The notes: generated by a model from the letters alone, not told the origin. A stretch of DNA of 64,000 nucleotides from Candidatus Binatia bacterium (GCA_036496285.1 DASXLI010000024.1:37125-101124), one strand, 5' to 3'. Positions 20,493-59,285 are shown, counted from the stretch's first letter. Translations and numbers: made by a program.

Positions 20493-20680
20493 CGCGTCTC
20501 TCCTCGCGCGTTTCCGCGGAATCTGCCGGCAGAGCGCAAAGGCTTGCGCGCCGGCCGCGCAGGAAAAGTGCAAAGAGCGTTCCGGAGCGGCTGCTGGCGC
20601 GCGAATGCTCACACGCCGTGTCGAGTAGTTGTCCACGACGCGCCACTCGACTAAGCGTCGCGCTGAAGGAGGTTCGCGCG

Positions 20681-21586
20681 ATGAATTCTCGATGGCCGAT
20701 CGCTGTCGTCGCCATGATCCTTCTCGCGGTCGCCTCGCCGGCGAGCTCCCAGCAGACGACGGAGACGAGCGAGACGACGGACGTCTCACACTCCACCGCC
20801 CAGCACCTCGAAGCCTTCCTGACGCGATGGGAGATCAGCCTCGGCGGCCAGATCGGCGCGCCGAAGGGATTCGTCAAGGTCGGCGAGTTCGACCGCTCCG
20901 GCGACAAGCTTCGCCTCAACAACGACCTCAAGATCGACACGTTCGAGGTCGCGAGCCTCGGTGCCGGCTTCCACATCACCGACCGCGACGTCATCCGCGC
21001 CCGCTTCGACTACACCTTCCTCTACGGCACGACGACCCGCGGCGACGAGACGGCGTTCAACGGTGCGCTGCTGGCGGCCGGCGAGGCCATCCGCACCCGG
21101 CCGGTCTTCACCCGCATCACCGGCCTCTACGAGCACGAGTTCATCCACGAGCCGAGCGGCGCACTCCTTGCCGCCGGCGGTGGCGTCACGTTCGTCTACC
21201 TGCACTTCAAGCTGCATGGGACGCTCGCGCCCGACACCGTGGGCCACGAGACCCAGGAGGACTTCTACGCGCAGGAGCTGCCGGTCTGGTTGCTGGCGTT
21301 GCACGGCGAGTATCCGATCAGCGAGCGCGTCCACCTGCTCGGCGCCGTCGACGGCGGCTTCCTGCCGAAGGTCGACAGCCTGCGGTCCGAAGGCGGCACG
21401 GTGAAGCTCTCGCAGGGCCACGCCGACGTCTTCGCCGGCGTGCGCGTCGCCGTCACCCCCCAGATCTTCGCCGATGCCGGCTATACCTACACGTACTTCT
21501 CGCAGCATGAGACGAGCCACGAGGACGACAACAAGTTCCTCTTCCTCGGCCACGCCTTCGGCTTCGGCATGACCTACCGCTTCTGA
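20681..21586 (+). CDS. Outer-membrane beta-barrel protein (301 aa) of unknown family
   Basis: An RBS (GAAGGAGG) lies 7 nt before the ATG. It has a signal peptide (MNSRWPIAVVAMILLAVASPASSQQ), alternating amphipathic strands, and a C-terminal ...FGFGMTYRF ending in Phe. Confidence 0.7.
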   Translation: MNSRWPIAVVAMILLAVASPASSQQTTETSETTDVSHSTAQHLEAFLTRWEISLGGQIGAPKGFVKVGEFDRSGDKLRLNNDLKIDTFEVASLGAGFHITDRDVIRARFDYTFLYGTTTRGDETAFNGALLAAGEAIRTRPVFTRITGLYEHEFIHEPSGALLAAGGGVTFVYLHFKLHGTLAPDTVGHETQEDFYAQELPVWLLALHGEYPISERVHLLGAVDGGFLPKVDSLRSEGGTVKLSQGHADVFAGVRVAVTPQIFADAGYTYTYFSQHETSHEDDNKFLFLGHAFGFGMTYRF

Positions 21587-21867
21587 GCCCCTTCCCCGCC
21601 TCGCCGATCGGTCGGCATGGCGCACATACCGGGAGGCGTGCCGCGCCGCGCCAACATTTTCTGGGGTGCTTTCGAGAAGACAGGACGTACTTGCCTACGA
21701 AAGGGCACACTCCTACACAATCATACCAGTCAGCGTTTCCCGTACCGGAAAGCGTGCGAACCACGTAATGACTTGCTGGCACGACAGAGGAACGGAAGAG
21801 CGCCCGTCAACCCCTTTCCTCGGGCGAGAATCAACGCACCGCAGTCAACCACTGGAGGAAGGGTCAT

Positions 21868-24800
21868 GGCATCCAGCTCGAAGCGCGCCGTCGTCGGCGC
21901 CGCCGCGCTCACCGCATTTCTGACGTTCGCAACGATCGCGCTCGCCGCAGCGCCCAACAGGTGCCTGAGCGGCCAGACACGCTGCGCGAGCCAGAAGGCG
22001 CAGGGTCTGCTGCAGTGCCACATCACGGCGGAGAGGGACGGCACTGCCGTCGATCCCGCGTGCACCGGGCGCGTGATGACGCGCTTCAGCGGCACTGCCG
22101 ACCAGCCGAGCTGCTTCGAGATGATCGGGGCGGGAGAAGATCGCAATTCCCAGGCGATCTGCGCCACGCACGACGACACGAACGCGATCGAGCAGAAGGT
22201 CGACGCGTTCGTGGAGGACGTCGTGTCGGGTATCGATCCCGACTTCCAACATGCTTCCCCGCCGAACTCGTGCACCTCGGGCAAGAAGAAGTGCGTCGCG
22301 GACAAGCTGAAGGACATCCTGCGATGCCACGAGCAGGCGATCCGAAGCGGCCACCACGTCGATCGTGACTGCGTCGCGAGGGCCCGCGCGAAGTTCGACG
22401 GCAACCGAGGCTGCTTCGCCAGGCTCGAGGCGAGGGAGAACCCGAGTAGCCCCTCGACCATCTGCAAGAGTCACGGTGACACCGCGGCCGTCGAGCAGAA
22501 GGTCGATGCCTTCATCACCGACCTGCTCTGCGAGCTCGGGTCGCCGACGGTGACGTGCGGAACGCCGACGCCGCCGCCCGTCCCGACGCGAACCAAGACA
22601 CCGACGCCGACCCGCACGCCGACGCCGACACGGACCGCGACGCCGGCAGCCACCGCGACCCCCACGCGAACCGCCACCGCCGCGCTGACCGCCACCAGGA
22701 CCGCAACTCCCGCGCCGACCGCGACGCCGACGAGGACCGCGACACCCGCGGCCACCGCGACGCCGACCAGGACAGCGACGCCGGTGAGCACCGCCACCTC
22801 GACGGCAACGACGGTGCCCACGACGACGGCGACGAGAACCGCCACGCCGCTACCGACCGCCACGCCGACGGTCACTTCCACGCCCGCGCAGACGGCAACC
22901 AGGACGGCGACGCCGGCGAGTACCGCGACCTCCACCGCGACCGCGACCGCGGTGCCCACGACGACCGCCACCGCGACGGCGACGGCGACCGCAACCACGG
23001 CCGCCACGGCAACCGCGACCAGAACCGCCACCCCGCTGCCGACCGCGACGCCGACGGTCACCTCGACACCCGCGCAAACAGCGACGAGAACGGCGACGCC
23101 GGCGACCACCGCCACGTCCACAGCGACGGCGACAGCAGCCGCAACGGCAACCGCAACGAGAACCGCCACCCCGCTGCCGACCGCGACACCGACCGTCACC
23201 GCGACGCCCGCGCTGACGGCGACTGCGACGAGAACCGCGACACCGACCGTCACCGCGACACCCGCACTGACGGCGACTGCGACGCGGACCGCCACGCCGA
23301 CCGTCACCTCGACACCGACTGTCACGGCCACCGCCGTGTTGACGGCGACCGCCACCCGGACCGCCACGCCGACCGTCACCGCAACGCCAGTGCTGACGGC
23401 GACGGCCACGAGAACGGCGACTCCGACGGTCACTGCAACGCCCGTCCTGACCGCGACGGCGACGGTGACCGCGTCGCCGACCCGCACCGCCACGCCCACG
23501 GTCACCGCGACGCCGGTGCTCACGGCCACCGCAACACGCACCGCGACGCCGACCGCCACCCTCACGCGCACCGCGACTCCGACGCCGACCGCCACCTCGA
23601 CGCCGGTCTCGCTCTGCGGCAATGGCGTCCTCGATGCGGGCGAGGACTGCGATGCCAGCGCCGGCGCCAGCGGCACGTGCGCTGCGCACTCGAACACGGA
23701 CCCCGCGTTCACCTGCACCGCTACGTGTCAGTGCGCCTGCCCGACGTTCGTCGAGTTCACTGGCATCCCGCGCTCCGCATGCGATGTCGGCACCAACGAA
23801 GGCCGCCTGTGCACCACGAACGCCGATTGCCCCGGCGGTAGCTGCGTGCCGCATCTCGAGGGCGCGCTCGATACCGGCTGGACCGGCAACGGCCACGACT
23901 CGACGATCGTGAGCGACGGCAAGATCACGGTCGGCGTATCGGGTTGCGCCGGCTCGAGCCGTCCGTGCGGAACTTGCTCGCTGGTCGGTCCGGTCGACAA
24001 CCTGAACGCGGCGACGTACCCGAGCGCGGTAGGCCCGAGCAAGGACCTGAACGATCACCGCTGCAGCAACAACACGTCGGTCCCGTGCAGCAACAACACG
24101 CCGTGCTTCCAGCAGTGCCTCGGTGGTACCAACGACGGCAATGCCTGCACGGCCGCATCGGCCTGCCCCGGTGGTGTCTGCCCCGCGGCGGGCACGTGCG
24201 AATACGCGTTCGGCACCTACCTGCCGCTCGCGGCCGGCGGCGTGTCGACCTGCGTCGGCAACCAGATCAACGGCAACATCACCGGCACGGCCAACATCGA
24301 GAGCGGCGCGTCGGCGACCACTGCCAAGCTGACGTCGCGCGTGTACAACGGCATCACGCTTTCGAACCCGTGTCCGCAGTGCAACGGCGACACCAATACC
24401 AACGACGGCGCCCGCGGCGGCACCTGCTCGGGCGGCCAGCGCGCAGGCAAGGCCTGCGACGTCAATGGCTCATCGCCGAACGCCTCCTTCGGGAAGACGA
24501 GCCTCGATTGCCCGCCGCTCACCGGCGCGCTCATCGCGACGCTCGGGATCGACCTGAGTAACACGACGGGCTCCAAGGTGCGGACGCTCTCCACGGCCAA
24601 CCCGCTCTGCCGCGCCCCAGGGTGGACCACGCAGCGCTGCCAGTGCGATACGTGCGCTGACCTCGCCGCCGAGGCCTGTTCGACGAATGCCGATTGCCCC
24701 GCAGGCCACCCCTGCGGCGTCAAGCGCTGCACCGGCGGTACCAACGGCGGCGCGCCGTGCACCTTGGCGAGCGAGTGCCCGGGCAGTGCATGCAGCACGC

Positions 24801-25204
24801 CGGGTGTTCAGACGGCGGGCAATCAGTGCGACGGCGCGTCGGGCGATTGCGTTGCTGATGCCGGGACGCCGAGCCCCAATGACCGCATCTGCTCCTCCGG
24901 TCCGCTCGAGAGCTTCTGCGGCCCGGTCGAGACGTTCCGTGGTTGTACGGGCGACAGCGACTGCACGTTCGCGGGCGACACCTGCAGTGTGACGCGCTTC
25001 CGCGATTGCTTCGACAACGGCATCCCCGGCGAGCTGATCACCGCGACCGGCTTGCAGAGCGCGCCGGTGAACGACCAGTCCGATCCGACGCTCGCCGCGC
25101 TCTTCTGCGTCGGGCCGACGAGCTCCGGGTCGATCAACTCGGCCGCGGGTCTCCCAGGTCCGGGACGCCTCGAGCTACCGGGTCACGCCCACGGGCTGCC
25201 GTAA
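21868..25204 (+). CDS. Giant secreted Cys-rich repeat protein (~1112 aa): duplicated N-terminal Cys module, ~350-aa Thr/Ala/Pro low-complexity region, and a C-terminal region with Myxococcus-type cysteine-rich repeats
   Basis: An RBS (GGAGGAAGGG) precedes the signal peptide. Two homologous ~110-aa modules are present ([20 protein letters not shown]... and [20 protein letters not shown]...). [14 protein letters not shown] and many CPGG/CxxC motifs follow after residue ~590. Confidence 0.8.
22560..23615. repeat. About 1 kb of imperfect tandem repeats (ACC/ACG/GCC/GCG/CCG codons) encoding (T/A)(A/T)TP(T/V)... low-complexity sequence
   Basis: The repeated units gcgacgccgaccgtcacc, cgcaccgccacgcc and acggcgacg recur dozens of times. 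The region is in frame within the giant CDS and has no spacer-and-repeat architecture. Confidence 0.85.
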
Positions 25205-27297: not shown

Positions 27298-27495
27298 GTG
27301 TCGGTCAACACGGCGCACAAGATCCTGATCGCCACCGCCATCGGCTTCTTCCTCATGTACGCCCTCTGGGAGCTGGCCGACTACACCCAGTCCGGCGAGG
27401 CGACCGCGCTCGTCTGGAGCCTCGCGGCCGGCACCGGTGCGATCGGGCTCGGCCTCTACCTGCGGCGCTTCATCCGCTCGCTCGGAACTCCGTGA
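27298..27495 (+). CDS. Small 2-TM membrane protein (65 aa), hypothetical
   Basis: It has a GTG start with an AGGAA upstream and two hydrophobic helices. Its TGA stop overlaps the GTG start of the next gene (GTGA). Confidence 0.4.
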   Translation: MSVNTAHKILIATAIGFFLMYALWELADYTQSGEATALVWSLAAGTGAIGLGLYLRRFIRSLGTP

Positions 27496-28175
27496 CCGCG
27501 ATCGTCCACGACATCGACCCGTCGCGCGTCCAGGCAGCGGTTTTCGACCTTGGCGGCGTCTTCCTCGCCGGCGGCGTCGAGTCGGTGCGGGGCTTCGGCG
27601 CGCGTCACGGCCTGTCGCCGGAGACGTGGGATGCGATCCGCCTCGAGCTCTTCCACGAGGCGGGCATCTGGTCGGCGTGCGAGCGCGGCGAGGTGACGCT
27701 CGAGCGTTTCGTCGCCCGCCTGCGCGAGCTGGTGAACGAGGCCGGCGGCTACGTGTCGCGCGGCGATGCCGAGAACTTCATGGGTGCGATGAGCGATCAG
27801 GAGGCCGGGCAGCGCCTGCGCCGCGAGATCGTCGACGCCGCGGGTCGCGTGCACGCCGTCATGCCGACGGCCCTCCTCACCAACAACATCCTGGAGTGGC
27901 GCCAGGGCTGGCGCGGACTGCTCGATCTCGCGACGCTCTTCGACGTCGTGATCGACTCGTCCGAGGTCGGCATCCGCAAGCCCGAGCCCGCGATCTACGA
28001 GCTCACCCGCACCAAGCTCGACCTGCCGCACGAGGCGATCTTCTTCCTCGACGATCTCGGCGTGAACCTGAAGCCGGCGCGCGCGCTCGGCTGGCAGACC
28101 CTACGCTACGACGACACGGAGCGCGTCCTCGCCGTGCTCGAGGCGCTCGTCGCGAGCCGTCCACCCCGCCCCTAG
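27492..28175 (+). CDS. HAD-superfamily hydrolase
   Basis: It has motif I (FDLGGVF), motif II (LLTNN) and motif IV (FFLDDLGVN). It is 227 aa. Confidence 0.7.
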   Translation: MTAIVHDIDPSRVQAAVFDLGGVFLAGGVESVRGFGARHGLSPETWDAIRLELFHEAGIWSACERGEVTLERFVARLRELVNEAGGYVSRGDAENFMGAMSDQEAGQRLRREIVDAAGRVHAVMPTALLTNNILEWRQGWRGLLDLATLFDVVIDSSEVGIRKPEPAIYELTRTKLDLPHEAIFFLDDLGVNLKPARALGWQTLRYDDTERVLAVLEALVASRPPRP

Positions 28176-28191: not shown

Positions 28192-29541
28192 TCAGGGCCG
28201 GTGCGCGGCGACGAAGGCGGCGATGAACTCGGCGCCCTTCGGGCTCGGGTGGTAGTGGTCCGTGAAGAAGTAGCTCGCCTTGTCCGGCAGCGACTCGAAC
28301 GCGGCCGCCAGATCGATCAGCGCGACGCCCTGCTCCGTCGCGAGCGCGCGCAGCAGCTCGTTGTTGTGGTCGAGCAACACCTTCCGGCGGCCGTCCATGT
28401 CGTGCATGAAGGTGACGATCACGGGCGTCACGCCCTTCGAGCGGCTGATCAGGCAGAGCGTCCGCACGTTCTCGGCGTAGGCGTCGCCGATCGTCGCGAG
28501 CAGCTGCCGCAGCTCGTCGCCGGGGTGGGCCTCCGGCGTCCACGTCGCGGCGGTCTCCTCGACCGGCGGCGGCCGCATCACCGCCGCGAGCGGCGGGACG
28601 TACTGCTGTACGACGTAGAAGAGGAGGCTCCGCGCGTACGCATTCTGTCCGCGCGTCGCCGACGCCCAGAACTCCGCCACGGAGCCGCTGAACAGGATGT
28701 CGTCGGAGATCAGCAAGCGGTCGCGTCCGGTACCGAACAGGTCGTTCGGGCCGAGGTAGAGGACGACCATCGTCGGCTTGTGCGGCAGCACGCGCACGTA
28801 GAAGCGGATCAAGGTCTGGAGCGAGGTGTAGCCGTTGTTGCCCGCGTTCACGACGTCGAGGGCCGGGTCGGGTCGTTGCGCCCGCAGCTTCTCCTCGAGG
28901 AGGTGCGGCCACGTCTGGTCGTCGTTCAGGCCGTAGCCGAAGACGGACGACTCGCCGAGCGTGAAGATGCGCGGGCCGGCGTCGTCCTCCCACCGCCCGC
29001 GCAGATGCGTACGGAAGCCGAAACCGTCGGTCGTGTACGTCGCGCCGGCGTTCGTCCAGGTGTTGCTCGGCTTCGCCTCGAACCCGAGGAGGATCGAGCG
29101 CTCGTGTCCCCACGCGGCGTACTCGGCGAACGCGTCCTGCGTCCGCAGGCGTTGCGTCAGCACCGTTTCGGCCAGCACGGCGGCGATGACGAGACCGCCG
29201 AGCGAGAGAAGAAACGCGGCGGCGGGACCGGCGCCCCCGGCCCGCCGGCACGCCCACGCGACGACCAGGGGCACGAACAGCAAGCTCGCGCCGCAGACCA
29301 GCAGGAAGCGCGCGTAGCGCGCGCTGTACGTCAACACCGCGGCATCGGGCGAGCGGTGGAAGACGAGGGGCAGGAGCAGCAGCCCGAGCGGCACGGCACA
29401 CAGCAGGTATCCCCGGGCGAACGGCCGCATGAGTGATGCGGTCAGGGAGCCGAGCGCGGGACGCAGTTCGCCGTAATAGGCATGAGGACGCCATACGGAA
29501 GCCCAGGGGGTCTCGGCAAGGACCGGTAGGACATGCGACAT
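28192..29541 (-). CDS. Membrane-anchored SGNH/GDSL hydrolase (putative polysaccharide or lipid O-acyl esterase or transferase)
   Basis: An N-terminal multi-TM region is followed by block I (FTLGESSVFGYG), block III (NAGNNGYTS) and block V (DHYHPSPKGAEFIA). The start is MSHVLPV at 29541. Confidence 0.7.
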   Translation of the reverse strand: MSHVLPVLAETPWASVWRPHAYYGELRPALGSLTASLMRPFARGYLLCAVPLGLLLLPLVFHRSPDAAVLTYSARYARFLLVCGASLLFVPLVVAWACRRAGGAGPAAAFLLSLGGLVIAAVLAETVLTQRLRTQDAFAEYAAWGHERSILLGFEAKPSNTWTNAGATYTTDGFGFRTHLRGRWEDDAGPRIFTLGESSVFGYGLNDDQTWPHLLEEKLRAQRPDPALDVVNAGNNGYTSLQTLIRFYVRVLPHKPTMVVLYLGPNDLFGTGRDRLLISDDILFSGSVAEFWASATRGQNAYARSLLFYVVQQYVPPLAAVMRPPPVEETAATWTPEAHPGDELRQLLATIGDAYAENVRTLCLISRSKGVTPVIVTFMHDMDGRRKVLLDHNNELLRALATEQGVALIDLAAAFESLPDKASYFFTDHYHPSPKGAEFIAAFVAAHRP

Positions 29542-29596
29542 TGACGCCCCCACCCCGTTTCCTTCATCATCGTCACCTGCCGTAGCGCGCCGGACC

Positions 29597-30628
29597 ATGT
29601 CGACCGAACAGCCCCTGCGAATCGCGGTGATAGGTGCAGGACGCTGGGGCCCGAATCACGTTCGAAACTTCCACGAGATCGGCGCAACCGTCGTCGGGGT
29701 CGCCGACCTCGAGCAGTCGCGCCTGGCCGCATTGCGTCAACGGTATCCGGGCCTCGTCGTCAGCACGGACTACCGCGACTTCCTCGCGCGCGACGACGTC
29801 GACGCGGTCGTCGTCGCGACGCCCGTCACCACGCATGCGCGGATCGTCGCCGACGCCCTCGCCGCCGGCAAGGACGTACTCGCCGAGAAGCCGCTCGCCG
29901 CGACGACCGCTGAGTGCGTCGAGCTCGCGGACGTCGCCCGCGCACACGGCCGCCTGCTCATGACCGGACATGTGTTTCTCTTCAACTCCGGCATTTTGAA
30001 GCTGAAGGAGCTTCTGCAGTACGGCGAGCTCGGCGACGTCTACTATTTTCACATCACCCGCACGAACCTCGGCCCCATCCGCCAAGACACCAACGCCGTC
30101 GGTGATCTGGCGAGCCACGACATCGCGACGCTCAACTTCCTGATCGGCGCGAGCCCGACGCACGTGAGCGGCACCGGGATGAGCTACCTGCAGGAAGGGC
30201 GCGAGGACGTGGCCTTCGTCACGCTGTTCTACCCGAACCGGACGATTGCCAGCCTCCACATCAGCTGGCTCGATCCCATGAAGGTGCGCCGCATCACCGC
30301 CGTGGGATCCAAGAAGATGGCGATCTGGGACGATCTCTCGCAACAGGGCCCTGTCGCCATCTACTCGAAGCGAATCGTACGTGAGCCGGTCGATCCCAGC
30401 ATGCCCGACTACGGGGACTTCCAGCTTCTCGTGCGCGAGGGGGAGATCAACATTCCCCTCGTCCATCAGATCGAGCCCCTCCGGGCGCAGGCGCAGTACT
30501 TCATCCAGGCTGTTCGGCAGCGGGCGCTGCGGGTCTGCGATGCGCCCTTCGCCACCGAGGTCGTGCGCATCGTCGAATGCATCAACGAGTCGATCGTTCA
30601 GGGGGGGAGCCGCGTCGCCGTTTCGTGA
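29597..30628 (+). CDS. Gfo/Idh/MocA family NAD-dependent oxidoreductase (WbpB/WlbA-like sugar 3-dehydrogenase)
   Basis: It has an N-terminal Rossmann fold (LRIAVIGAGRWGPNHVRN) and the EKP motif (AEKPLA). Confidence 0.8.
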   Translation: MSTEQPLRIAVIGAGRWGPNHVRNFHEIGATVVGVADLEQSRLAALRQRYPGLVVSTDYRDFLARDDVDAVVVATPVTTHARIVADALAAGKDVLAEKPLAATTAECVELADVARAHGRLLMTGHVFLFNSGILKLKELLQYGELGDVYYFHITRTNLGPIRQDTNAVGDLASHDIATLNFLIGASPTHVSGTGMSYLQEGREDVAFVTLFYPNRTIASLHISWLDPMKVRRITAVGSKKMAIWDDLSQQGPVAIYSKRIVREPVDPSMPDYGDFQLLVREGEINIPLVHQIEPLRAQAQYFIQAVRQRALRVCDAPFATEVVRIVECINESIVQGGSRVAVS

Positions 30629-30649
30629 GCGACCGGCGGAGCAGCCGAC

Positions 30650-31639
30650 ATGACGCCGCTCCGGCTCCTCGTCACCAGCGCTGGCTCCGCTCCCGCCGTC
30701 GCGGTGATCAAGGCACTTCGACAGCAGTCCCGCTATTCCGTGGAGATTGGCACCGTCGACGCACAGGAGCGCTCCGTGGGGAAGCTGCTCGCCGACCGGT
30801 TCGATCTGGTCCCCCACGCGGCCGACCCGACCTTCGTCCCGCACCTGATGGATCTCTGCGTCACTCACGGCGTGCAATACGTCTTCCCGATCATCGACGA
30901 GGAATTGCCCGTGTGGGCCGCCGCCCGGGACCGCTTCGCCGCTGCCGGAGTCACCGTCTTCGCCAATCCGGTCCAGTGTGTCGAGCTCGCCAACGACAAG
31001 CTGAGCACGGCGAGCCACTGCCTCGCCCACGGCATACCCCACCCGCGCTGCTACGACTCCGCGGAAGCACGCGCACTCTCGTTCGAGGCGTTTCCGCTGT
31101 TCGCCAAGCCACGCTTCGGACGCGGAAGCGTGGGTGCGAAGCGCATCGAGAATCCGGGCGAGCTAAACGATTTTCTCCGGCGCCACCCGGACGGGCTGGT
31201 GCAGGAGCTGCTCGCTGGTGTCGAGTTGACCGTCGACGTGCTCGTGAGCGCGGAGGGTGAGCTGCTCGCCGCGGTGCCGAAGGAGCGCCTCGAGGTGAAG
31301 GCGGGCATGGCCACGAAGAGCATTACACGCCCGGGTGCGGAGGTGCTGCCGTTGGTCCGCAAGGTGGTCGCGGACTTCGGGATCCGCGGCGCCGCGAACG
31401 TCCAACTCATGGGGACCGGTGGACGCTGGAGCCTCATCGAGGTCAATCCGAAGTTCGCCGCGAGCCTGCCGCTCACCGTGGCCGCGGGCGTCAACTTGCC
31501 CTTGCATCTCCTCGAGCTGGCACGCGCCGAGTTCGCGCACCCGACACCGCTGCCGTTCACGCAGGATCTGTTGATGCTGCGCCGCTGGGAGGAGCACTTC
31601 GTGCGCGAGGGGCCCCGCTCGTCGGCGGGCGCCGTATGA
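30650..31639 (+). CDS. ATP-grasp domain protein (putative carboxylate-amine ligase acting on a sugar intermediate)
   Basis: It is CPSase-L/PylC-like, with FAKPRFGRGSVGAKRIEN, ELTVDVLV and LIEVNPKFAAS motifs. Confidence 0.7.
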   Translation: MTPLRLLVTSAGSAPAVAVIKALRQQSRYSVEIGTVDAQERSVGKLLADRFDLVPHAADPTFVPHLMDLCVTHGVQYVFPIIDEELPVWAAARDRFAAAGVTVFANPVQCVELANDKLSTASHCLAHGIPHPRCYDSAEARALSFEAFPLFAKPRFGRGSVGAKRIENPGELNDFLRRHPDGLVQELLAGVELTVDVLVSAEGELLAAVPKERLEVKAGMATKSITRPGAEVLPLVRKVVADFGIRGAANVQLMGTGGRWSLIEVNPKFAASLPLTVAAGVNLPLHLLELARAEFAHPTPLPFTQDLLMLRRWEEHFVREGPRSSAGAV

Positions 31640-32634
31640 CCGACCGTCGCATATTGGTGACGGGCGGAGCCGGCTTCATCGGCTCACACATCGTCGAAGA
31701 CCTCCTCTTGCACGGGTACGATGTCACCGTCCTCGACAACCTGAGCAGCGGCCGGCGGGAGAACCTCGCCGCCGTCTCCCGCGACGTACGGTTCGTCGAA
31801 GGCGACCTCGCGGACGGAAACCTCCTTGCCCGTGCGATGCGCGGCCAGCGCTTCGTTTCGCACATGGCGGCGCAGCTCGAGATCATCCGCTGCAGCAAGG
31901 ATCCTCTCGCCGACCTCGACGCCAACACGGTCGCGACCCTGCGCGTCCTGAACGCCGCGGTGGAAGCGGGACTCGACAAGATGGTCAACGCGTCGTCGGC
32001 ATGCGTCTATGGTCAGGCGGTGCACGTACCCGCCTCCGAGGACGGACATCCGAAAAATCCGAACTGGGCGTACGGGGTGAGCAAGCTCGCAGCCGAGCAC
32101 TACTGCCGGCTGTTCCACGAGAGCGGCCGCCTCGCCACGACGAGTCTGCGCTTCGCGATCGTCTACGGACAGCGCGAATGGTGCGGACGCGTGATCACGA
32201 TGATGCTTCGGCGCGCCCTCCGCGGCTTGCCGCCCGTCGTCTTCGGCGCCGGAGACCAGTCACGTGATTTCATCCATGTCGACGACGTGGTCCGCTGTCA
32301 CCGGCTCGCGCTGGAATCGGACGCGGCGAACGGCCTCCCCTTCAACGTCTCGACCGGCATCGGCACCGACGTCTCCACGCTGGCAGGCTTGTGCGCGGAA
32401 GTGACCGGACTCGGGCAGCCTCCGATCTTCGAGGACACGGCGCAAGGCGAGACGTCGCAGGCGATGCCCGACCGAGTTCGCCTGCCACAGGAGCTGCACA
32501 CCATGATCCTGGATCCCACCCGGGCGAATCAGCTGCTCGGCTTCCGAGCGGAGACGCTGCTCCGGACCGGCCTTGCTCGCGAATGGGCGTGGATCCGGAA
32601 ACAACCCGACCGTTGGAACTCGCTCTCGATCTGA
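31636..32634 (+). CDS. NAD-dependent epimerase/dehydratase (extended SDR, UDP-sugar epimerase-like)
   Basis: It has the GGAGFIGSH Rossmann motif and the YGVSK catalytic YxxxK. The ATGA overlap with the upstream gene is present. Confidence 0.85.
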   Translation: MTDRRILVTGGAGFIGSHIVEDLLLHGYDVTVLDNLSSGRRENLAAVSRDVRFVEGDLADGNLLARAMRGQRFVSHMAAQLEIIRCSKDPLADLDANTVATLRVLNAAVEAGLDKMVNASSACVYGQAVHVPASEDGHPKNPNWAYGVSKLAAEHYCRLFHESGRLATTSLRFAIVYGQREWCGRVITMMLRRALRGLPPVVFGAGDQSRDFIHVDDVVRCHRLALESDAANGLPFNVSTGIGTDVSTLAGLCAEVTGLGQPPIFEDTAQGETSQAMPDRVRLPQELHTMILDPTRANQLLGFRAETLLRTGLAREWAWIRKQPDRWNSLSI

Positions 32635-32645
32635 GTGGCGTGCCG

Positions 32646-33428
32646 ATGACCAGCGTACCCCGACCATCCGGGAGCGAGGGCGCGGCACAGCGTGGCGCCG
32701 GGACCTGGACGAACGCACAGCGCGACTACTTCGAGCGGAACCTCGAGGAATACGATCGCGAACGGGCGTTGCGGGCGCGAGCGTACGCGCGAAAGGCGCG
32801 TATGCTCCGCCGTGAGCTCGAGAAGTCGGACGTACACGACGTCCTCGAAGTCGGCGCGGGGAGTGGTCTCGTGACGACGTTCCTGGCCCCCGCGCTGCCG
32901 CGCGTCCGTTATGTCGCCCTCGACTTCGCGACCGCGATGCTCGCGGCTGCACGGAGCCGGGCGGCCACGCCGCGCGTGCACCTGATCGCAACCGATGCCG
33001 GCGCGGCGGGGCTCGCCAGCGACTCCTTCGACGCGATCGTCGGCGTCGACATCGTGCACCACCTGGAGTCTCCGGTGCAGGCAATGCGCGAATGGTGGCG
33101 GCTGGCGCGCCCGGGCGCGCGGCTGGCCGTGCTCGAGACCAACCCGTATCACCCGGTGAATCTCCGCTTCGTCGGCGTCGCACACGAGCTCCGTCTCTTC
33201 CTGAACAGCCCGGCGAACCTCGTCGCCTGGGCGCGCGAGGCCGGGTGGCAGGAGGTCGCCCTCGACGCGACACCGACCTTCACGCCCTCGGGTCCTCCCT
33301 GGCTGGCCCGCGCGCTCGACGCCGTGGATCATCTCGCGGTACGAATGCCGGGCGCACGCTGGCTGGCCGCACTCTGGTTGCTGACCGGACGCAAGCCTCT
33401 CGGGACGGGAACGGCGGGAGCGCCCTGA
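32646..33428 (+). CDS. Class I SAM-dependent methyltransferase
   Basis: Motif I (VLEVGAGSG) and motif II/III (DAIVGVDIVHH) are present. Confidence 0.7.
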   Translation: MTSVPRPSGSEGAAQRGAGTWTNAQRDYFERNLEEYDRERALRARAYARKARMLRRELEKSDVHDVLEVGAGSGLVTTFLAPALPRVRYVALDFATAMLAAARSRAATPRVHLIATDAGAAGLASDSFDAIVGVDIVHHLESPVQAMREWWRLARPGARLAVLETNPYHPVNLRFVGVAHELRLFLNSPANLVAWAREAGWQEVALDATPTFTPSGPPWLARALDAVDHLAVRMPGARWLAALWLLTGRKPLGTGTAGAP

Positions 33429-33432
33429 CGGC

Positions 33433-34152
33433 ATGACGACCAACCGCGACCTCGACCAGATTGCGTCGGAGTATGACTCGCTGAGCGACTTCGACCACCA
33501 CGCGATCGCCCACGAGGCCGATCTGTTCCTCGCAGACTACGTGGATGGGGCTGTGCTCGAGCTCGGCTGCGCTCGAGGCGGGATGACGCGCAAGCTCGCA
33601 CCCATCGTCGATCGCCTGGTCGTCGTCGACGGCTCCGAAACGTACCTTACAGAGCTGCGTCGGGATCTCGGACAGCAGGCGGAGTTCGTCTCGAGTCGAT
33701 TCGAGGACTACGACCCCGCGTCGACGTTCCGCCACGTGCTCGCGGCGCGCATCCTCGAGCACCTGCAGGAGCCCGTCGCCTTCCTGAAGCGCCTGCGCGG
33801 CTGGCTCGAGCCCCACGGGATGCTCCACGTCATCGTCCCCAACGCACGCTCGTTTCACCGCCTGCTCGGTCTGGAGATGGGTTTGATCAAGGACCTCCAC
33901 GAGCTCGGCGAGCGCGACCGCCGGGTCGGCCACGTCCGGGTCTACGATTCGGACATGCTCATGCGCGACCTCGAGAGCGCAGGCTTCCGCGTGACATGGC
34001 GGAGGGACGTGATGTTGAAGCCCCTGTCGAACGCCCAAATGGAGACGTGGGAGCCCGCCATCATCGACGCACTCTTCCGCATGGCGCGCCACTTCCCCGA
34101 TCACGGCAACGAGCTCTACTTCCGATGCGAAGCGGCCAGGGTGCGGCCCTGA
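33433..34152 (+). CDS. Class I SAM-dependent methyltransferase (second copy)
   Basis: It has VLELGCARGGMT and LHVIVPN motifs. It is 239 aa. Confidence 0.7.
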   Translation: MTTNRDLDQIASEYDSLSDFDHHAIAHEADLFLADYVDGAVLELGCARGGMTRKLAPIVDRLVVVDGSETYLTELRRDLGQQAEFVSSRFEDYDPASTFRHVLAARILEHLQEPVAFLKRLRGWLEPHGMLHVIVPNARSFHRLLGLEMGLIKDLHELGERDRRVGHVRVYDSDMLMRDLESAGFRVTWRRDVMLKPLSNAQMETWEPAIIDALFRMARHFPDHGNELYFRCEAARVRP

Positions 34153-34153
34153 C

Positions 34154-34882
34154 GTGGCGGCACCCTCGCCCCCGCTTCTCGTCGTCACGTTTTGCTACAA
34201 TGAGCGCATCAAGATTGCTTCGACGCTCGAGCGATTCTGCGGCCACCCGCAGTGGGACGTGTGGGTCATGGATGACGGCTCGACCGACGGCTCAACCGAC
34301 ACGCTCGAGCAGACGCACGGCGTGCGCATTATCCGACACGACCGCAACCGCGGCGCCGGCGCAGCTGTGCGGACCGTCTTCGAGGAGTTCGTGCGCTCCC
34401 CCTATCAGGTGGTCGTCCTCGTCGCCGGCAACGACAAGGACCGGCCAGAAGACGTCATGCGCGCCGCAACGCCGGTCCTCACCGGAGAACGCGACGTCGT
34501 GCAGGGCTCGCGTTACCTTCCCGGAGGCGAGATCGCCAACATTCCCGTCTATCGCCAACTCGCGACGCGCTACGTTCACCCGATGATCTTCAACGTCGTC
34601 TCCGGACTCCGCATGACCGACACGACGAACGGGTTTCGCGCGATTCATCGCCGTGTGCTGGAAGATCCCCGCCTCGACCTCTCGTCTCCGAGGCTCGATC
34701 AGTACGACCTCGAGCCCTTCTTCCTCCTGAAGACCGCCCGCCTCGGCTATCGCCTCGCCGAGGTCCCGGTGCGAAAGATCTATCCGAGGGGTAATCTCAG
34801 CTATACGAAGATGGCTCCGGTAACTGGCTGGTGGAGCATTCTGAGGCCGCTCATCTATTGCGGCCTGGGCATCTGGAAATGA
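34154..34882 (+). CDS. GT2 family glycosyltransferase, DPM1/ArnC/CsbB-like polyprenyl-phosphate sugar synthase
   Basis: It has VVTFCYNE, VWVMDDGSTDGS and GSRY motifs, a C-terminal hydrophobic segment, and a GTG start. Confidence 0.8.
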   Translation: MAAPSPPLLVVTFCYNERIKIASTLERFCGHPQWDVWVMDDGSTDGSTDTLEQTHGVRIIRHDRNRGAGAAVRTVFEEFVRSPYQVVVLVAGNDKDRPEDVMRAATPVLTGERDVVQGSRYLPGGEIANIPVYRQLATRYVHPMIFNVVSGLRMTDTTNGFRAIHRRVLEDPRLDLSSPRLDQYDLEPFFLLKTARLGYRLAEVPVRKIYPRGNLSYTKMAPVTGWWSILRPLIYCGLGIWK

Positions 34883-35997
34883 ACGACACCGGCTACATTC
34901 CGCTCGTCGATCTCACGCGTCAGTATCGCGAGCATCGGACTGAGCTCGATGCCGCACTGACGGGCGTCCTCGAAGCCGCCACCTTCATCAACGGACCCGA
35001 CGTCACGGCGTTCGAGGCTGAGTTCGCCACCTTCTGCCAGGCACGCCATTGCGTCGGCGTATCGTCGGGGCTCGAGGCACTGCGTCTCATTCTCGCCGCA
35101 CTGAGCATCGGACAGGGCGACGAGGTCATCCTTCCGGCCAATACGTTCGTTGCGACGGCCCTGGCAGTAAGCGCAGTCGGCGCAACCCCCGTCCTCGTGG
35201 ACTGCGACCCCGTGACGGCCAACCTCACCGCGGAGCTCGTGGCCGAGGCGATCACGCCTCGGACGAAGGCGATCATCCCCGTGCATCTCTACGGCCAACC
35301 GGTCGACCTCGATCCTCTGCACGCCCTCGCCCGGGCTCACGGCATTCCCTTGATCGAGGATGCGGCGCAGGCGCACGGGGCGGCATATCGTGGACGGCGC
35401 TGTGGCAGTCTCGGCCTCGCAGCGGGCTTCAGCTTCTACCCCACGAAGAACCTCGGCGCGTTCGGGGACGGAGGGGCCGTCGTCACCAGCGACGACCGGA
35501 TCGCAGACTTCGTTCGCCAGGCGCGCGACTATGGGCAGCAGCGCAAGTACGAGCATGTCGTCAAGGGAGGCAACGCTCGGCTCGACAGCATGCAAGCCGC
35601 GATACTGCGGGTGAAGCTACGTCATCTCGACGGCTGGAACGCCGCGCGGCGGCGGGCCGCGGCCGCGTACGAAGCGCACCTGGCCGGTCTCCCAGGCGTC
35701 CACCTGCCCACGATGCGACCGGACGTCGAACCCGTCTGGCACCTCTACGTGATCCAGGTGAAGGATCGTGACGCCCTCGTCTCGACGTTACATGCCGCGG
35801 GCGTTGGCGCGGGTATCCACTATCCTGTTCCGATCCATCTCCAACCCGCCTACGCGGACCTTGGTCATTCGGCGGGCGATTTCCCGCACGCCGAGGAGCG
35901 CGCCAAGAGAATCGCGAGCCTGCCTCTGTTCCCCGAGATCCGCGAAGACGAGATCGAGCGTGTCTCGGCCGTTGTCCGACGCTTCGTCGCCGGCTGA
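34879..35997 (+). CDS. DegT/DnrJ/EryC1/StrS family PLP-dependent sugar aminotransferase (WbpE/ArnB-like)
   Basis: It begins MNDTGYIPLVDLTRQYREH and has the PLP Lys region (SFYPTKNLGAFGDGG). The ATGA overlap is present. Confidence 0.85.
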   Translation: MNDTGYIPLVDLTRQYREHRTELDAALTGVLEAATFINGPDVTAFEAEFATFCQARHCVGVSSGLEALRLILAALSIGQGDEVILPANTFVATALAVSAVGATPVLVDCDPVTANLTAELVAEAITPRTKAIIPVHLYGQPVDLDPLHALARAHGIPLIEDAAQAHGAAYRGRRCGSLGLAAGFSFYPTKNLGAFGDGGAVVTSDDRIADFVRQARDYGQQRKYEHVVKGGNARLDSMQAAILRVKLRHLDGWNAARRRAAAAYEAHLAGLPGVHLPTMRPDVEPVWHLYVIQVKDRDALVSTLHAAGVGAGIHYPVPIHLQPAYADLGHSAGDFPHAEERAKRIASLPLFPEIREDEIERVSAVVRRFVAG

Positions 35998-36010
35998 TCG
36001 GCATCTGCTG

Positions 36011-38353
36011 GTGACTTCTGATCGCAGGCGAGCGCGGCCGCCCGGAATCAACTGGGCTTCACTCGCCCTCGCATGTTGCGTCTTCCTCGCGGCTGCGCTC
36101 GTGATGTTCGGCGACGTCCTCCTGGCCGGCAACTCCCGAATCCTCTCGATCCCGAACGAGGACATCACGCGTCCGCTCTTCTACTCCCTGCCGTTCGGAT
36201 TCGGGGAGCTCAGAAAAGGACACCTCGTCCTCTGGAATCCCTACAACTACGCCGGGCTGCCGTTCCTCGGAGCCTTCGGCCACGCACTCCTCTATCCACC
36301 GCATTGGCTGCACATGTTCCTCGCTCCCGCGCTCGGCATCGACGTCGAGATTGCGCTGCATCTGTTCCTGGCGGGCGTCTTCGTCTACCTCTGGACCTCG
36401 CACCGTCGCCTGCATCCCGCGGCGTGCATCCTGGCGGGGCTGGTCTTCATGTTCTCGGGCGCGGTGTTTCTCCAGATCTACCGCGGCCATCTGCACTGCA
36501 TCATCTCGCTGACGTGGGCCCCGCTCATCATGCTGGCCATCGACGGAGTGCTCGACGGTACGCCCCGGCCGTCCCCCCGCGTGTGGACGATGATCGGCAT
36601 GGTGGCCGTCGCCATGCAGATACTCTCCGGACACGTTCAGTACACGTTTTACACAGCCATCATCGCCGGCATCTATGCGCTGCTCCGCTGGCTGACGGCG
36701 AGCCGACGGCTGCGTGACGTCCTATGCCTGGCGATGATCTATGCAGGAGGCGCGAGCCTGGCGGCCGTGCAGCTCTTCACCGGACTGCAGGCGGCCTCGG
36801 AAGGCTATCGCACGAGCATCAGCTACGACGTTGCTGCGTCGTTCGCCTTCCCACCCGAAAACGTCCTCACCCTGATCTTTCCCGGCTTCTTCGGCGACAT
36901 GGTCTCCACGCCCTATTGGGGTCGATGGACGCTCACGGAGATGTCGCTGTTCATGGGCGTCTGCCCGTTCGTGATCGCTGTATGCGCGCTCGTACACGGC
37001 GCCAAGGGCGTGCGGCGCTTCAGCCTCCTCATGGCGGTGATCGTTCTCGTTCTCGCCTTCGGCGACTACACCCCGCTCTTCCGCCTCTTGTACGATCACG
37101 TCCCGGGCTTTCAGAACTTCCGCGGGACGACGAAGTTCACGTTCCTCGCGCTCTTGTTCCTCTCGATGCTCGTAGCGGTGGGGTTCGACTACCTGCTGCG
37201 GTCGCGCGTTCCCCGGTGGCTCGCCGTGAGCGCGTTCCTCACTAGCGCCTTGTTGACCGCGGGTGGCCTGGCGCTGGCGTCCGATTGCCGGTCGGGAGGA
37301 CGCGACATCTGGACTCCGACCCTTTCGAGGATGTCCTTCCTCGCGGAGGCCTACCAAAGCTTCATCGTCGAGCGTGCCACCGGGTCGCTCGCGGCGTGTC
37401 AGAACGCTTCGCGATCGTTGTGGATCACCGCCGGAACGTTGGCCGTGTTCGGCGCGCTGTCAGTGGCGGCACGTCGTTGGCACCGCCTCGTCTACGTCAT
37501 CGGGTTGGTCGGTGTCATCGAGCTCATGGCGTATGCCCGATATACGCGGCCGACATTCGATCCGACACCGCTCGCCGAACGCAGTGTGACCTTGCGCCGG
37601 CTACTCGATGAGCGGGATGCCGGCGACGCGCGAATCCTGAGCTACGACCCGTACTCGTACATCGCGATGGGCGCGCGCGCATACGATCTGTGGGGGGCCG
37701 AACCCGCCCTGCTCGGTCGCTACGCGCGCTTCGTCGCCCTCACGCAGCGATGGCCGACGGATGCGATCCTCGTGACCTCGGGCATGCGCACGCCTACCCC
37801 GCTGCTCGGAATGTTGCGTCTTCGATACTTGCTCCGGATGAACGCCGAGCAGATGACGCTGCTACCGACCAACCTGCCGCAGCTTCCGCGGGCCGCCCTC
37901 ATCTCCAATTGGAACGTGCTGCCGGATTCCGATCACGTCCTCGCGGCTCTTCAGGACACGACTTTCGATCCAACGCGGATCGCTCTCCTGGAACACGATC
38001 CGGGACTCACTCCGAGCGGATCCGAAGAGCCTGGACAGATCTCCATCCATGACCTCTCGACGGAGGAGATCGACATTACGGTCGACGCGCCACAACCGTC
38101 GATCCTGGTCATCAGCGACAACTACAGTGCAAGCTGGAAGGCTGCGCCTCTCGACCCGGGAGACACGCGCTCATACGTCGTCGAGCCCGCGGACTATCTG
38201 CTACGCGCGATTCCCTTGCCGGCCGGACATCATCACATCCGTCTCGAATACCGACCGTCGGCGCTGATCCTCGGGACGTGGGTAACGGTCTCGACGATCG
38301 CGGCGTGCCTGGTGGTTCTGGCGTTGGAATGGCGGCGCGTGCGCAAGCGGTGA
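36011..38353 (+). CDS. GT-C fold polytopic membrane glycosyltransferase, YfhO family-like (~780 aa)
   Basis: It has at least 12 TM helices, an LVLWNPYNYAGLPFLG motif in the first periplasmic loop, a large C-terminal soluble domain and a final TM. The probable GTG start is 14 nt after the aminotransferase stop. Confidence 0.7.
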   Translation: MTSDRRRARPPGINWASLALACCVFLAAALVMFGDVLLAGNSRILSIPNEDITRPLFYSLPFGFGELRKGHLVLWNPYNYAGLPFLGAFGHALLYPPHWLHMFLAPALGIDVEIALHLFLAGVFVYLWTSHRRLHPAACILAGLVFMFSGAVFLQIYRGHLHCIISLTWAPLIMLAIDGVLDGTPRPSPRVWTMIGMVAVAMQILSGHVQYTFYTAIIAGIYALLRWLTASRRLRDVLCLAMIYAGGASLAAVQLFTGLQAASEGYRTSISYDVAASFAFPPENVLTLIFPGFFGDMVSTPYWGRWTLTEMSLFMGVCPFVIAVCALVHGAKGVRRFSLLMAVIVLVLAFGDYTPLFRLLYDHVPGFQNFRGTTKFTFLALLFLSMLVAVGFDYLLRSRVPRWLAVSAFLTSALLTAGGLALASDCRSGGRDIWTPTLSRMSFLAEAYQSFIVERATGSLAACQNASRSLWITAGTLAVFGALSVAARRWHRLVYVIGLVGVIELMAYARYTRPTFDPTPLAERSVTLRRLLDERDAGDARILSYDPYSYIAMGARAYDLWGAEPALLGRYARFVALTQRWPTDAILVTSGMRTPTPLLGMLRLRYLLRMNAEQMTLLPTNLPQLPRAALISNWNVLPDSDHVLAALQDTTFDPTRIALLEHDPGLTPSGSEEPGQISIHDLSTEEIDITVDAPQPSILVISDNYSASWKAAPLDPGDTRSYVVEPADYLLRAIPLPAGHHHIRLEYRPSALILGTWVTVSTIAACLVVLALEWRRVRKR

Positions 38354-57032: not shown

Positions 57033-57066
57033 CCGGAGCATTGTCCGACACACGTTCCCCATCGCC

Positions 57067-58422: not shown

Positions 58423-59285
58423 GCAACTACTTCCAGGTACTGAAGCGCATCGAGAAGGACCGCGCCGGCAAGGTCGCGGCACTCCCCGCCGCCGAGGCCG
58501 CGCCGGCTCCGTCCGTTGCGCCGCGCGAGCCCGCGCCGGCACCGCCGGTCGTCGAGGAGCGTGTCGCGCGCGAGGTGCAGCCGATCATCCGTGCCGTGCC
58601 GCCGCCGCGCCCGTCGGTCACGACGTTGCAGCCGATGGCTCCCGCGGCGCCGCGCACGCCGGCACCGCGTCCCGCGCCGTTCGTCCCACCTCCGGTCCGT
58701 CCGCGCTCGTCGGCGCCGCTCTCGCACGAGCGCCAGCGCGGCATCGCGACGCTCCTCGACAAGATGCGCGCGCTCGGCAGCGGTCAGTCGTCGCGCACCT
58801 TCGTCTTCGCCGGTGCGGCGCCGTCCGACAGCGTCCACAGCGTGAGCGACGGCCTGGCCCGCCACGCCGAAGGCTTCGGGATGCACGTGTTGATCGCGCA
58901 GCTCTTCGTACACGGGGGCGGCCACAAGCTGGTCGCCGTCGGCCCGATCGAGAACGACGCCGACCGCACGGCAACGATCGACCTGCACGGCCCGGCCGCG
59001 CCCGACGAGCTGAACGCGTGGGTCGACCGCGTCGCCTCGACGCACGACCTCGTCGTGCTCGAGGGCCCACCGCTCTCGGAATCGATCGACGCGGCGCTGC
59101 TCGCCTGCGCCTGCGACGGCCTCGTGATCGTCGCGGACGCCGAGGTCACGCCGCGCGCGGCGCTGCAGACCGCGGCGGAGCGTGCGCATACCGCGGGCTG
59201 CCGCACGCTCGGCGTCGTGATGAGCGGCACCAAGGAACGTCTCCCGGGCTGGGTTCGCCGGCTCGGCATCGGCGGGAACGGCTGA
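58419..59285 (+). CDS. Pro-rich N-terminus plus a degenerate ParA/BY-kinase-like P-loop domain (Walker A Lys/Ser absent)
   Basis: The N-terminal 110 aa are rich in Pro, Ala and Arg. The C-terminal region has FVFAGAAPSDSVHSVSDGLA in place of GxxxxGK[ST], and a Walker-B-like DLVVLEGPP. It is ATGA-coupled to both neighbours. Confidence 0.55.
   Translation: MSNYFQVLKRIEKDRAGKVAALPAAEAAPAPSVAPREPAPAPPVVEERVAREVQPIIRAVPPPRPSVTTLQPMAPAAPRTPAPRPAPFVPPPVRPRSSAPLSHERQRGIATLLDKMRALGSGQSSRTFVFAGAAPSDSVHSVSDGLARHAEGFGMHVLIAQLFVHGGGHKLVAVGPIENDADRTATIDLHGPAAPDELNAWVDRVASTHDLVVLEGPPLSESIDAALLACACDGLVIVADAEVTPRAALQTAAERAHTAGCRTLGVVMSGTKERLPGWVRRLGIGGNG

Follow-up and report, generated by a model that had tools for sequence, protein, structure and literature searches.

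The stretch of Candidatus Binatia bacterium DNA considered here (GCA_036496285.1 DASXLI010000024.1:37125-101124; 64,000 nucleotides, hereafter the window) carries on its plus strand an operon of eight co-directional, tightly packed genes (29597-38353). The middle of this operon (30650-34152) is made up of four genes, encoding an ATP-grasp ligase, a short-chain dehydrogenase/reductase (SDR) and two methyltransferases (MT1 and MT2). The intergenic distances along the operon are 21, -4, 11, 4, 1, -4 and 13 bp; the two ATGA stop/start overlaps join the ligase to the SDR gene and the GT2 glycosyltransferase gene to the DegT aminotransferase gene. Genes were fixed by the G+C content at third codon positions (GC3), by Pfam and NCBIfam matches and by the independent JGI gene call on the same contig, spurious open reading frames being abundant at a G+C content such as that of the window (about 70%). 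The JGI call gives the same operon genes.

The first gene of the operon (29597-30628) encodes an oxidoreductase of the GFO/IDH/MocA family, a predicted nucleotide-sugar 3-dehydrogenase. It is followed by the ATP-grasp ligase (30650-31639; 329 aa), a member of the PRK12767 'carbamoyl-phosphate-synthase-like' family and a predicted N-acyl ligase acting on a sugar 3-amino group, and by an extended SDR that resembles UDP-hexose/HexNAc 4-epimerases (31636-32634; 332 aa; Pfam Epimerase, 6.6e-59). MT1 (32646-33428; 260 aa; Methyltransf_11, 3.7e-17) and the weakly NodS-like MT2 (33433-34152; 239 aa; Methyltransf_23, 1.8e-13; NodS, 3e-6) are both class I S-adenosylmethionine (SAM) methyltransferases. 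Downstream lie a small, soluble GT2 resembling DPM1, AglJ and PpgS, which is a predicted polyprenyl-phosphate sugar synthase (34154-34882; 242 aa; Glycos_transf_2, 8.1e-16), a DegT/DnrJ/EryC1 pyridoxal phosphate-dependent aminotransferase predicted to act at C3 of a nucleotide sugar (34879-35997; Pfam, 1.7e-120) and a YfhO-family GT-C membrane glycosyltransferase of 780 aa (36011-38353).

A preliminary description of positions 30650-34152 had recognised the ATP-grasp gene after the oxidoreductase gene and two distinct class I methyltransferases upstream of the GT2, and both observations hold; the methyltransferases share only 27% identity over 101 residues, in the SAM-binding core. The methyltransferases do not follow the ligase directly, as had been stated, because the complete SDR gene lying between them had been overlooked. 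The two methyltransferase genes are near-adjacent as described, although the gap, given as 5 bp, is 4 bp (TGA-CGGC-ATG). The description also missed the context provided by the small GT2 and the GT-C membrane transferase, which together point to one tailored sugar being delivered on a lipid carrier.

The ligase matches the Pfam families ATPgrasp_Ter (3.9e-17), ATP-grasp_3 (1.4e-16) and PylC-like_N (6.7e-13) and has the three-domain ATP-grasp fold, with 2pn1, PylC, PurD, PurT and PurK as its closest folds. The sole close solved relative is PDB entry 2pn1 (1.6e-41), an Exiguobacterium 'carbamoylphosphate synthase large subunit' from structural genomics whose record gives no substrate; the window protein has only about 15% identity with PylC and PurD, both enzymes of unrelated pathways. 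The NCBIfam group, PRK12767 ('carbamoyl phosphate synthase-like protein'), is uncharacterised. Residues K117, K153, E264 and N266 (EVNPKF) are invariant across 40 homologues. The E-x-N-P-R motif of PurK, PurT and carbamoyl phosphate synthase (CPS) binds ATP/Mg, and by analogy these four residues may be the ATP/Mg2+-binding residues of the family. The invariance of the lysines and the E-x-N motif throughout the family makes it probable that the enzyme is active.

The NCBIfam and JGI labels ('carbamoyl phosphate synthase-like', 'large subunit') would suit a housekeeping enzyme, either a RimK-type modifier or a CPS fragment, lying among sugar genes by chance, which the preliminary description had named as the outcome that would overturn its reading. 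This is scarcely credible, as it is already contradicted by the data: the ligase is neither. The RimK-type domain (PF08443) gave no match, and RimK/LysX are not the closest structural likeness. The protein stands alone at 329 aa, in contrast to the approximately 1050 aa, TIGR01369 match and duplicated CPSase_L_D2 domain of a CPS large subunit, and its CPSase_L_D2 score is below threshold (18.8 vs the 19.8-bit cutoff). Furthermore, the ligase adjoins the same sugar genes in all related loci with gene calls, across phyla. A search of the literature found no characterised member of this ATP-grasp family, no ATP-grasp enzyme acting on nucleotide amino sugars and no experimentally studied member of the gene set, widely conserved as it is; no paper naming the Methanococcus maripaludis gene aglU/MMP1084 turned up either. 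Clostridium difficile CD0242, from the type A flagellin glycan pathway (N-methyl-threonine phosphate), was considered as a CPS-like ATP-grasp enzyme accompanied by an HAD protein and a methyltransferase, and was dropped because it is a nucleotidyltransferase (PMC10714395).

The genes on either side of the ligase point to amino-sugar chemistry. The oxidoreductase clearly belongs, by its sequence, to the GFO/IDH/MocA family (Pfam GFO_IDH_MocA, 2.1e-26, plus C-terminal domains); among NCBIfam models it scores highest against the archaeal UDP-GlcNAc 3-dehydrogenase (4.8e-49, 167 bits vs a 450-bit cutoff), followed by inositol 2-dehydrogenase (109 bits). Among proteins in the PDB the aminotransferase is closest to DesV (1.7e-121; 51% identity over 367 aligned positions), followed by QdtB (8e-107), WbpE (2e-88), ArnB (1.3e-61) and NtdA, at only 8e-51. 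This is strong homology, and the protein is accordingly assigned as a predicted C3 aminotransferase of the DegT family. A GFO-family 3-dehydrogenase with a C3 DegT aminotransferase is the established Wbp/Gnn route to a 3-amino sugar nucleotide. For the SDR, the best PDB matches are UDP-glucose/GlcNAc 4-epimerases (4zrm, 5.3e-49; 6wjb, 4.4e-47), with MoeE5 further down (3.6e-39).

In WbpB/WbpE/WbpD of Pseudomonas and Bordetella, and in GnnA/GnnB, a 3-dehydrogenase and a DegT aminotransferase, with or without a left-handed beta-helix (LbH) N-acetyltransferase, give UDP-2-acetamido-3-amino (or 3-acetamido) sugars. The operon shares with these systems the pairing of a GFO-family dehydrogenase with a C3-type DegT enzyme, WbpE itself being among the PDB matches given above. 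It differs from them in that Pfam finds no LbH N-acetyltransferase of the WbpD type in the operon, which has no UDP-GlcNAc 6-dehydrogenase either and carries the ATP-grasp ligase, the SDR and the two methyltransferases instead; its GFO protein also scores below every equivalog cutoff. A tblastn search with one query found no UDP-sugar 6-dehydrogenase (UGDH) homologue anywhere in the window.

The strongest evidence on the role of the ligase comes from a sister locus, L094, which holds the closest available relative of the window YfhO protein on a long contig. This locus has orthologues of the YfhO protein (61% identity), the GT2 (46%), the GFO protein (44%) and the DegT protein (53%), and its fourth biosynthetic gene encodes a NeuD/PglB/VioB-type LbH sugar N-acetyltransferase; genes for an ATP-grasp enzyme, an SDR, a methyltransferase or an HAD protein are absent. 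As judged from these sequences, the same delivery machinery and amine-forming pair are combined with an acetyltransferase in one case and with the ATP-grasp set in the other. Because L094 has an N-acetyltransferase where the operon has the ATP-grasp ligase, the SDR and the methyltransferases, we predict with moderate confidence that the target of the ligase is the 3-amino group of a nucleotide sugar, which it N-acylates. The preliminary description had left open whether the sugar is N-acylated or amidated. The 51% identity of the aminotransferase to DesV, the lack of a UDP-sugar 6-dehydrogenase homologue in a tblastn search of the window with one query and the N-acetyltransferase of the sister operon make acylation of an amino group on the sugar more likely than uronic acid amidation.

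An 'acetyl' counterpart of the ATP-grasp module seems to be present in the same genome, 24 kb away. A further polysaccharide locus (55515-63166, plus strand), distinct from the operon and possibly running past the end of the window, encodes a GNVR/Wzz-like protein (55515-57032), an AAA_22 ATPase (57067-58422), a polyprenyl glycosylphosphotransferase (58358-60694; TIGR03025, 371 bits, over cutoff), an ArnC-like small GT2 (60722-61480), a second GFO/IDH/MocA oxidoreductase (61449-62549) and a NeuD/PglB/VioB-type LbH acetyltransferase (62543-63166), which is 43% identical to the acetyltransferase of L094. The LbH acetyltransferase of the Wbp/Gnn systems is kept both in the sister locus and in this part of the window (60.7-63.2 kb).

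Homologues of the ligase with at least 53% identity were found only in metagenomes and metagenome-assembled genomes (MAGs), while those in GTDB representative genomes reach at most 38%. A protein with 100% identity to the window ligase is listed by NCBI under a Candidatus Binatia MAG. In all ten related contigs with gene calls (40-66% ligase identity; Acidobacteria, Omnitrophota or without assignment) GFO, ATP-grasp and GT2 genes lie side by side, the GFO gene adjoining the ligase gene in every such locus, and most contigs also have the SDR and DegT genes. By tblastn the same association is seen in Planctomycetia, Patescibacteria and other MAGs (L004, L023, L028). Copies of the SDR, with 43-71% identity, adjoin the ligase in L084, L088, L089, L090, L023 and L028, and a further match in L004 is truncated by the contig end. 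The preliminary description had called the predicted product a rare decoration. The core gene set does not bear this out, since it recurs in Binatia, Acidobacteria, Omnitrophota, Planctomycetia, Patescibacteria and other groups. A profile scan of metagenome contigs with an alignment of the close clade recovered two loci only, and a scan of genome contigs recovered relatives of at most 38% identity, mostly in unrelated contexts.

Some of the relatives have features of their own. The Omnitrophota-type modules (L089, L090, L092 and L093) also contain B12-radical-SAM enzymes, a carbamoyltransferase and a different, 335-aa type of GT2. In Legionella septentrionalis (L006, 3524-12564) a 36%-identical ATP-grasp protein lies in a different cluster, in which genes for a GH81 protein, a processive GT2 synthase and a TPR protein are listed before the ligase, and those for a His_Phos_1 phosphatase and a fusion of a response regulator with a PIG-L deacetylase come after it; the PIG-L de-N-acetylase could expose a sugar amine beside the ligase/phosphatase pair.

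The relatives also carry a gene that the window lacks. An orthologous HAD-IA phosphatase is found in 13 of the 14 distinct loci with a GFO-linked ligase (including L002, L084, L085 and L088-L093), characterised by the motifs DLDGP and GDTEVD and by 26-60% mutual identity, and it adjoins the GT2 in every gene-called locus that has it. No member of this family is present anywhere in the 64-kb window, and there is no space for one at the corresponding position of the operon, because the GT2 and DegT genes overlap. As L094 has no HAD gene, the phosphatase appears to be tied to the ligase step, not to the GT2. That a dedicated phosphatase travels with the ligase suggests, by analogy with the Campylobacter pathway described next, that in the relatives the acid partner carries a phosphate, which is removed once ligation has taken place.

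In the Campylobacter jejuni HS:2 capsule pathway the C-terminal ATP-grasp amidoligase of Cj1438 (Cj1438C) ligates serinol phosphate or ethanolamine phosphate, and the HAD enzyme Cj1435 then removes the phosphate from the product (PMC11800379). The relatives of the operon resemble this system (Cj1437, Cj1438C and Cj1435) in carrying an ATP-grasp ligase/HAD pair, and the operon might by the same logic (Cj1435-Cj1438) amidate a uronic acid, the ligase joining a phosphorylated amine made by the GFO and DegT enzymes to a uronic acid (UDP- or lipid-linked) at its C6 carboxylate, before a phosphatase removes the phosphate. The chemistry of ATP-grasp, HAD and pyridoxal phosphate enzymes is experimentally established for Cj1438C, Cj1435 and Cj1437 (PMC11800379), the phosphatase accompanies the ligase in all but one of the loci counted above, L089, L090 and L091 have UDP-sugar 6-dehydrogenase genes in the neighbourhood of the module, and the similarity of the SDR to MoeE5 is similarity to a UDP-GlcA 4-epimerase. 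We nevertheless consider uronic acid amidation unlikely here. A tblastn search with one query found no UGDH homologue in the window, which lacks the phosphatase as well, the aminotransferase is 51% identical to a bona fide NDP-hexose C3 aminotransferase, and L094 pairs the GFO, DegT, GT2 and YfhO genes with an amino-sugar N-acetyltransferase, implying that the amine is on the sugar. The ligases also differ: the ligase of Cj1438 is of the TupA-like type, forms one protein with a GT2 and activates the carboxylate of the sugar (PMC11800379), whereas the window ligase belongs to the PylC-N/ATP-grasp_3 family and has no TupA-type Pfam match. In this operon, unlike in C. jejuni, it is most likely the sugar that supplies the amine.

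Upstream of the operon the window does encode another HAD-IA hydrolase (27492-28175, plus strand; Pfam Hydrolase, 9.7e-10; NCBIfam TIGR02247, 108 bits), 1.4 kb away across a divergent gene and not detectably related to the phosphatase of the module; it is possible that it stands in for the latter. The divergent gene (28192-29541, minus strand) encodes a membrane-anchored SGNH/GDSL hydrolase with three N-terminal transmembrane helices (Lipase_GDSL_2, 1.1e-19), for which tblastn found no match in any related locus; L002 does have a GDSL-domain gene at its edge, about 10 kb away from the module, but that gene is unrelated. Both this gene and the upstream HAD gene were considered as members of the operon and set aside, as conservation gave no tie.

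The remaining two proteins of the operon point to delivery by a lipid carrier. The GT2 has no transmembrane helix and contains the conserved motifs DDGSTDG and TDxTNGFRA. Its best NCBIfam models are AglJ (3.7e-17), PpgS (4.8e-16) and a Dol-P-hexose transferase (6.6e-12), all below cutoff, and its sole PDB match is the Dol-P-Man synthase of Pyrococcus furiosus (1.6e-10). The membrane protein scores 35.2 bits against Pfam YfhO, over the 28.5-bit cutoff. Its start was placed at the GTG at 36011, the JGI call beginning at 36104, within the first transmembrane helix; the protein has approximately 12 transmembrane helices, a C-terminal beta-rich domain and a terminal transmembrane helix. At least 413 homologues were collected, most of them with a precomputed PF09586 assignment. 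The AlphaFold2 model (pLDDT 91.1) confirms a GT-C fold at the level of predicted structure, the top Foldseek matches all being GT-C enzymes with probabilities of 0.77-1.00 (AftD, ArnT, AglB, PglB, STT3, DPY19 and PMT). A GT2 and a GT-C enzyme encoded together with sugar genes correspond, as far as sequence comparison goes, to the architecture of single-sugar decoration systems of the Arn, Gtr, CsbB/YfhO and PpgS types.

Large membrane proteins also occur beside the module elsewhere. A large GT-C-type protein adjoins it in L084 and L089 (PMT_2, over cutoff), and a large membrane protein of L002 gives a sub-threshold YfhO/PTPS_related match. The membrane proteins of L002, L084, L085 and L089 were examined as counterparts of YfhO and rejected, as they have no sequence likeness to it and belong to other GT-C families or to none assigned. 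A small PQ-loop/MtN3 membrane protein, a possible flippase candidate, is encoded just upstream of the GFO gene in L092 (6712-6975) and L093 (6643-6912).

These observations bear on a further explanation, in which the operon belongs to a soluble small-molecule pathway and its product is an aminoacylated amino-glycoside metabolite. In mycothiol synthesis a glycosyltransferase and a phosphatase are combined with an amine-generating step and an ATP-dependent ligase, and GFO, DegT and HAD enzymes form the NtdC/NtdA/NtdB (kanosamine) and the RifLKM pathways. The relatives offer the same triad and NtdA is among the PDB matches of the aminotransferase; in addition, the HAD always adjoins the GT2 there, as in pairs of glycosyl-phosphate synthase and phosphatase, and in the Legionella cluster the ligase is found together with a GT2, a phosphatase and a PIG-L deacetylase. 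A soluble product is, however, very unlikely. In several loci the module has a GT-C transferase beside it, which in the window belongs to the operon itself, and in L089, L090 and L092 the module is embedded in Wzx/Wzy polysaccharide clusters. The best matches of the GT2 are polyprenyl-phosphate glycosyltransferases, the aminotransferase is far nearer to the NDP-sugar enzymes than to NtdA, and the GT2 of L094 works without the HAD.

Delivery to the envelope has a parallel in the ArnB/ArnC/ArnT system, which puts L-Ara4N on lipid A and to which PpgS/Rv3779, LgmABC, FlmF2/FlmK, GtrB/Gtr, CsbB/YfhO and GacI/GacL are analogous systems. The operon shares with Arn, as predicted from its genes, the tailoring of an amino sugar in the cytoplasm, the loading onto polyprenyl phosphate by a GT2 and the transfer outside by a GT-C enzyme; ArnB is a PDB match of the aminotransferase and ArnT is among the top structural matches of the YfhO protein. 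It differs in having the predicted amine at C3, where Arn has it at C4, and in having no formyl or acetyl protecting-group cycle, no deacylase and no flippase that could be seen, with a ligase and methyltransferases present instead.

Both methyltransferases have a Rossmann-like SAM-binding domain (Pfam Methyltransf_11/25/12/23 at 1e-9 to 1e-17), with the glycine-rich motif I reading VLEVGAGSG in MT1 and VLELGCARG in MT2. The start of MT1 is most likely the ATG at 32646, giving 260 aa, rather than 32583 or 32391, since in the 281-aa version the alignment with relatives does not begin before about residue 31-42. The best PDB match of MT1 is a weak one to phosphatidylethanolamine N-methyltransferase (2e-7), and that of MT2 is the uncharacterised 2p7h (8.1e-26); the names of MT2 homologues, being generic annotations only, are uninformative. 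Orthologues of MT1 (54-64% identity) are confined to the closest clade (L002, L084, L085), and MT2-type genes lie beside the ligase in about half of the loci (L002, L084, L085, L021, L023, L028), which argues that the methyltransferases are accessories of a sub-lineage and not part of the core. Some homologues of MT2 are fused to GNAT (PF13302) or LbH/hexapeptide acyltransferase domains (P0183, P0190, P0212), which hints that the MT2 family may work beside N-acylation chemistry. The doubly methylated sugar of the preliminary description is one possibility only, since the methyl groups may sit on the acyl group.

Another reading of the ligase is as a PurK-like N-carboxylase, which would convert the 3-amine to a carbamate, to be esterified by a methyltransferase to a methyl carbamate. 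This is highly improbable: it has no specific support, it leaves the HAD partner of the relatives unexplained, and in many relatives (L088, L089, L090) the ligase occurs with no methyltransferase at all.

Taken together, the evidence leads us to favour, by a modest degree, the view that the operon builds a tailored 3-amino sugar, acylated and methylated, which is delivered by a lipid carrier to an extracytoplasmic acceptor. The GFO/IDH/MocA enzyme would, on its homology, oxidise C3 of a UDP-hexose or UDP-HexNAc, and the DesV-like aminotransferase would convert the resulting 3-keto sugar into the 3-amino sugar, a step for which homology is strong. The ATP-grasp enzyme would then turn a small carboxylic acid into an acyl phosphate and couple it to the 3-amino group, as suggested by its place in the operon, which is that of the LbH N-acetyltransferase in the sister operon, and by its fold neighbours. 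MT1 and MT2 would methylate the product; the acyl amine or hydroxyls are the favoured sites, though this is a guess. The SDR may set the configuration at C4, and the DPM1/PpgS-like GT2, to judge from its family resemblance, would move the sugar onto polyprenyl phosphate. After flipping, the YfhO-type enzyme, with its GT-C fold, would transfer the sugar to an acceptor in the envelope. The locus is an instance of a known logic, the lipid-carrier delivery of a tailored amino sugar; what is new in it is an uncharacterised, conserved ATP-grasp enzyme in the place of an N-acetyltransferase, together with two methyltransferases in this clade.

Several points weigh against this pathway. No member of the ATP-grasp family has a known substrate in the literature searched, 2pn1 included, and the replacement argument depends on one sister locus, L094. 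The GFO protein and the GT2 are far below the curated cutoffs of all named NCBIfam models, so that their substrates can be given at the level of the family only, and the likeness of MT1 and MT2 to N-methyltransferases is weak and non-diagnostic. The phosphatase found in nearly all ligase loci is absent from the window, and the pathway may therefore differ from that of the relatives. Finally, neither a flippase of the GtrA or ArnE/F type nor any small membrane-protein gene was identified in the operon.

A more specific version of the favoured pathway is offered tentatively, as a possibility on the doubtful side. The ATP-grasp family may be a new class of nucleotide-amino-sugar:carboxylate ligases that replaces acyl-CoA N-acetyltransferases and places an aminoacyl or hydroxyacyl group on the 3-amino sugar, the group stemming, in the relatives, from a phosphorylated acid whose phosphate is removed later. 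The two methyltransferases of this clade would then N-methylate the group once or more, and the resulting cationic or zwitterionic sugar would be put on the Gram-negative outer envelope by the YfhO-type GT-C enzyme, in parallel to charge modification with Ara4N or GalN. O-antigens and capsules commonly contain amino sugars whose nitrogen is acylated by an amino acid or a hydroxy acid, and to our knowledge most of the enzymes that attach these groups have yet to be identified. Its conservation across phyla, and its position where the sister operon has an N-acetyltransferase, make the ATP-grasp family a concrete and testable candidate for this missing activity. The operon also predicts a new single-sugar decoration of the envelope, delivered in diderm bacteria by a YfhO-type GT-C enzyme; elsewhere, YfhO is known from the glycosylation of teichoic acids in Gram-positive bacteria. 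Such decorations change surface charge, phage receptors and resistance to antimicrobial peptides.

The composition of the operon differs from that of its surroundings. Its G+C content is 0.661, compared with approximately 0.70 in the flanking housekeeping genes, and its GC3 is 0.79-0.87 vs 0.88-0.975, a bias that is still that of real genes in a genome of 70% G+C. The lower values are compatible with acquisition as an island and suggest horizontal transfer. The flanks comprise glpX, an enoyl-CoA hydratase gene and the HAD gene on one side and two acyl-CoA dehydrogenase genes and a glutathione S-transferase gene on the other; no tRNA genes are present in the window. A scan for promoters and terminators gave nothing above chance. 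The 55-bp gap before the first operon gene contains, on weak evidence, a promoter-like site (29541-29570, plus strand; TTGACG-18-CATCAT) with 9 of 12 matches, the sole such site in 11.5 kb, where 0.9 would be expected by chance.

Elsewhere in the window, a plus-strand open reading frame of 1195 aa (21617-25204) overlaps long minus-strand reading frames (22471-23559 and 21730-22317). Its first-position G+C content is unusually high (approximately 0.85), no reading of the region has a Pfam match, and JGI splits it differently. The minus-strand gene at 17634-20834 encodes a 1066-aa protein with a hydrazine-synthase-alpha middle domain and a PD40 repeat. Next to it, on the plus strand, lies a gene for an outer-membrane beta-barrel-like protein (20681-21586; 26.6 bits, just under cutoff), which is consistent with a diderm host.

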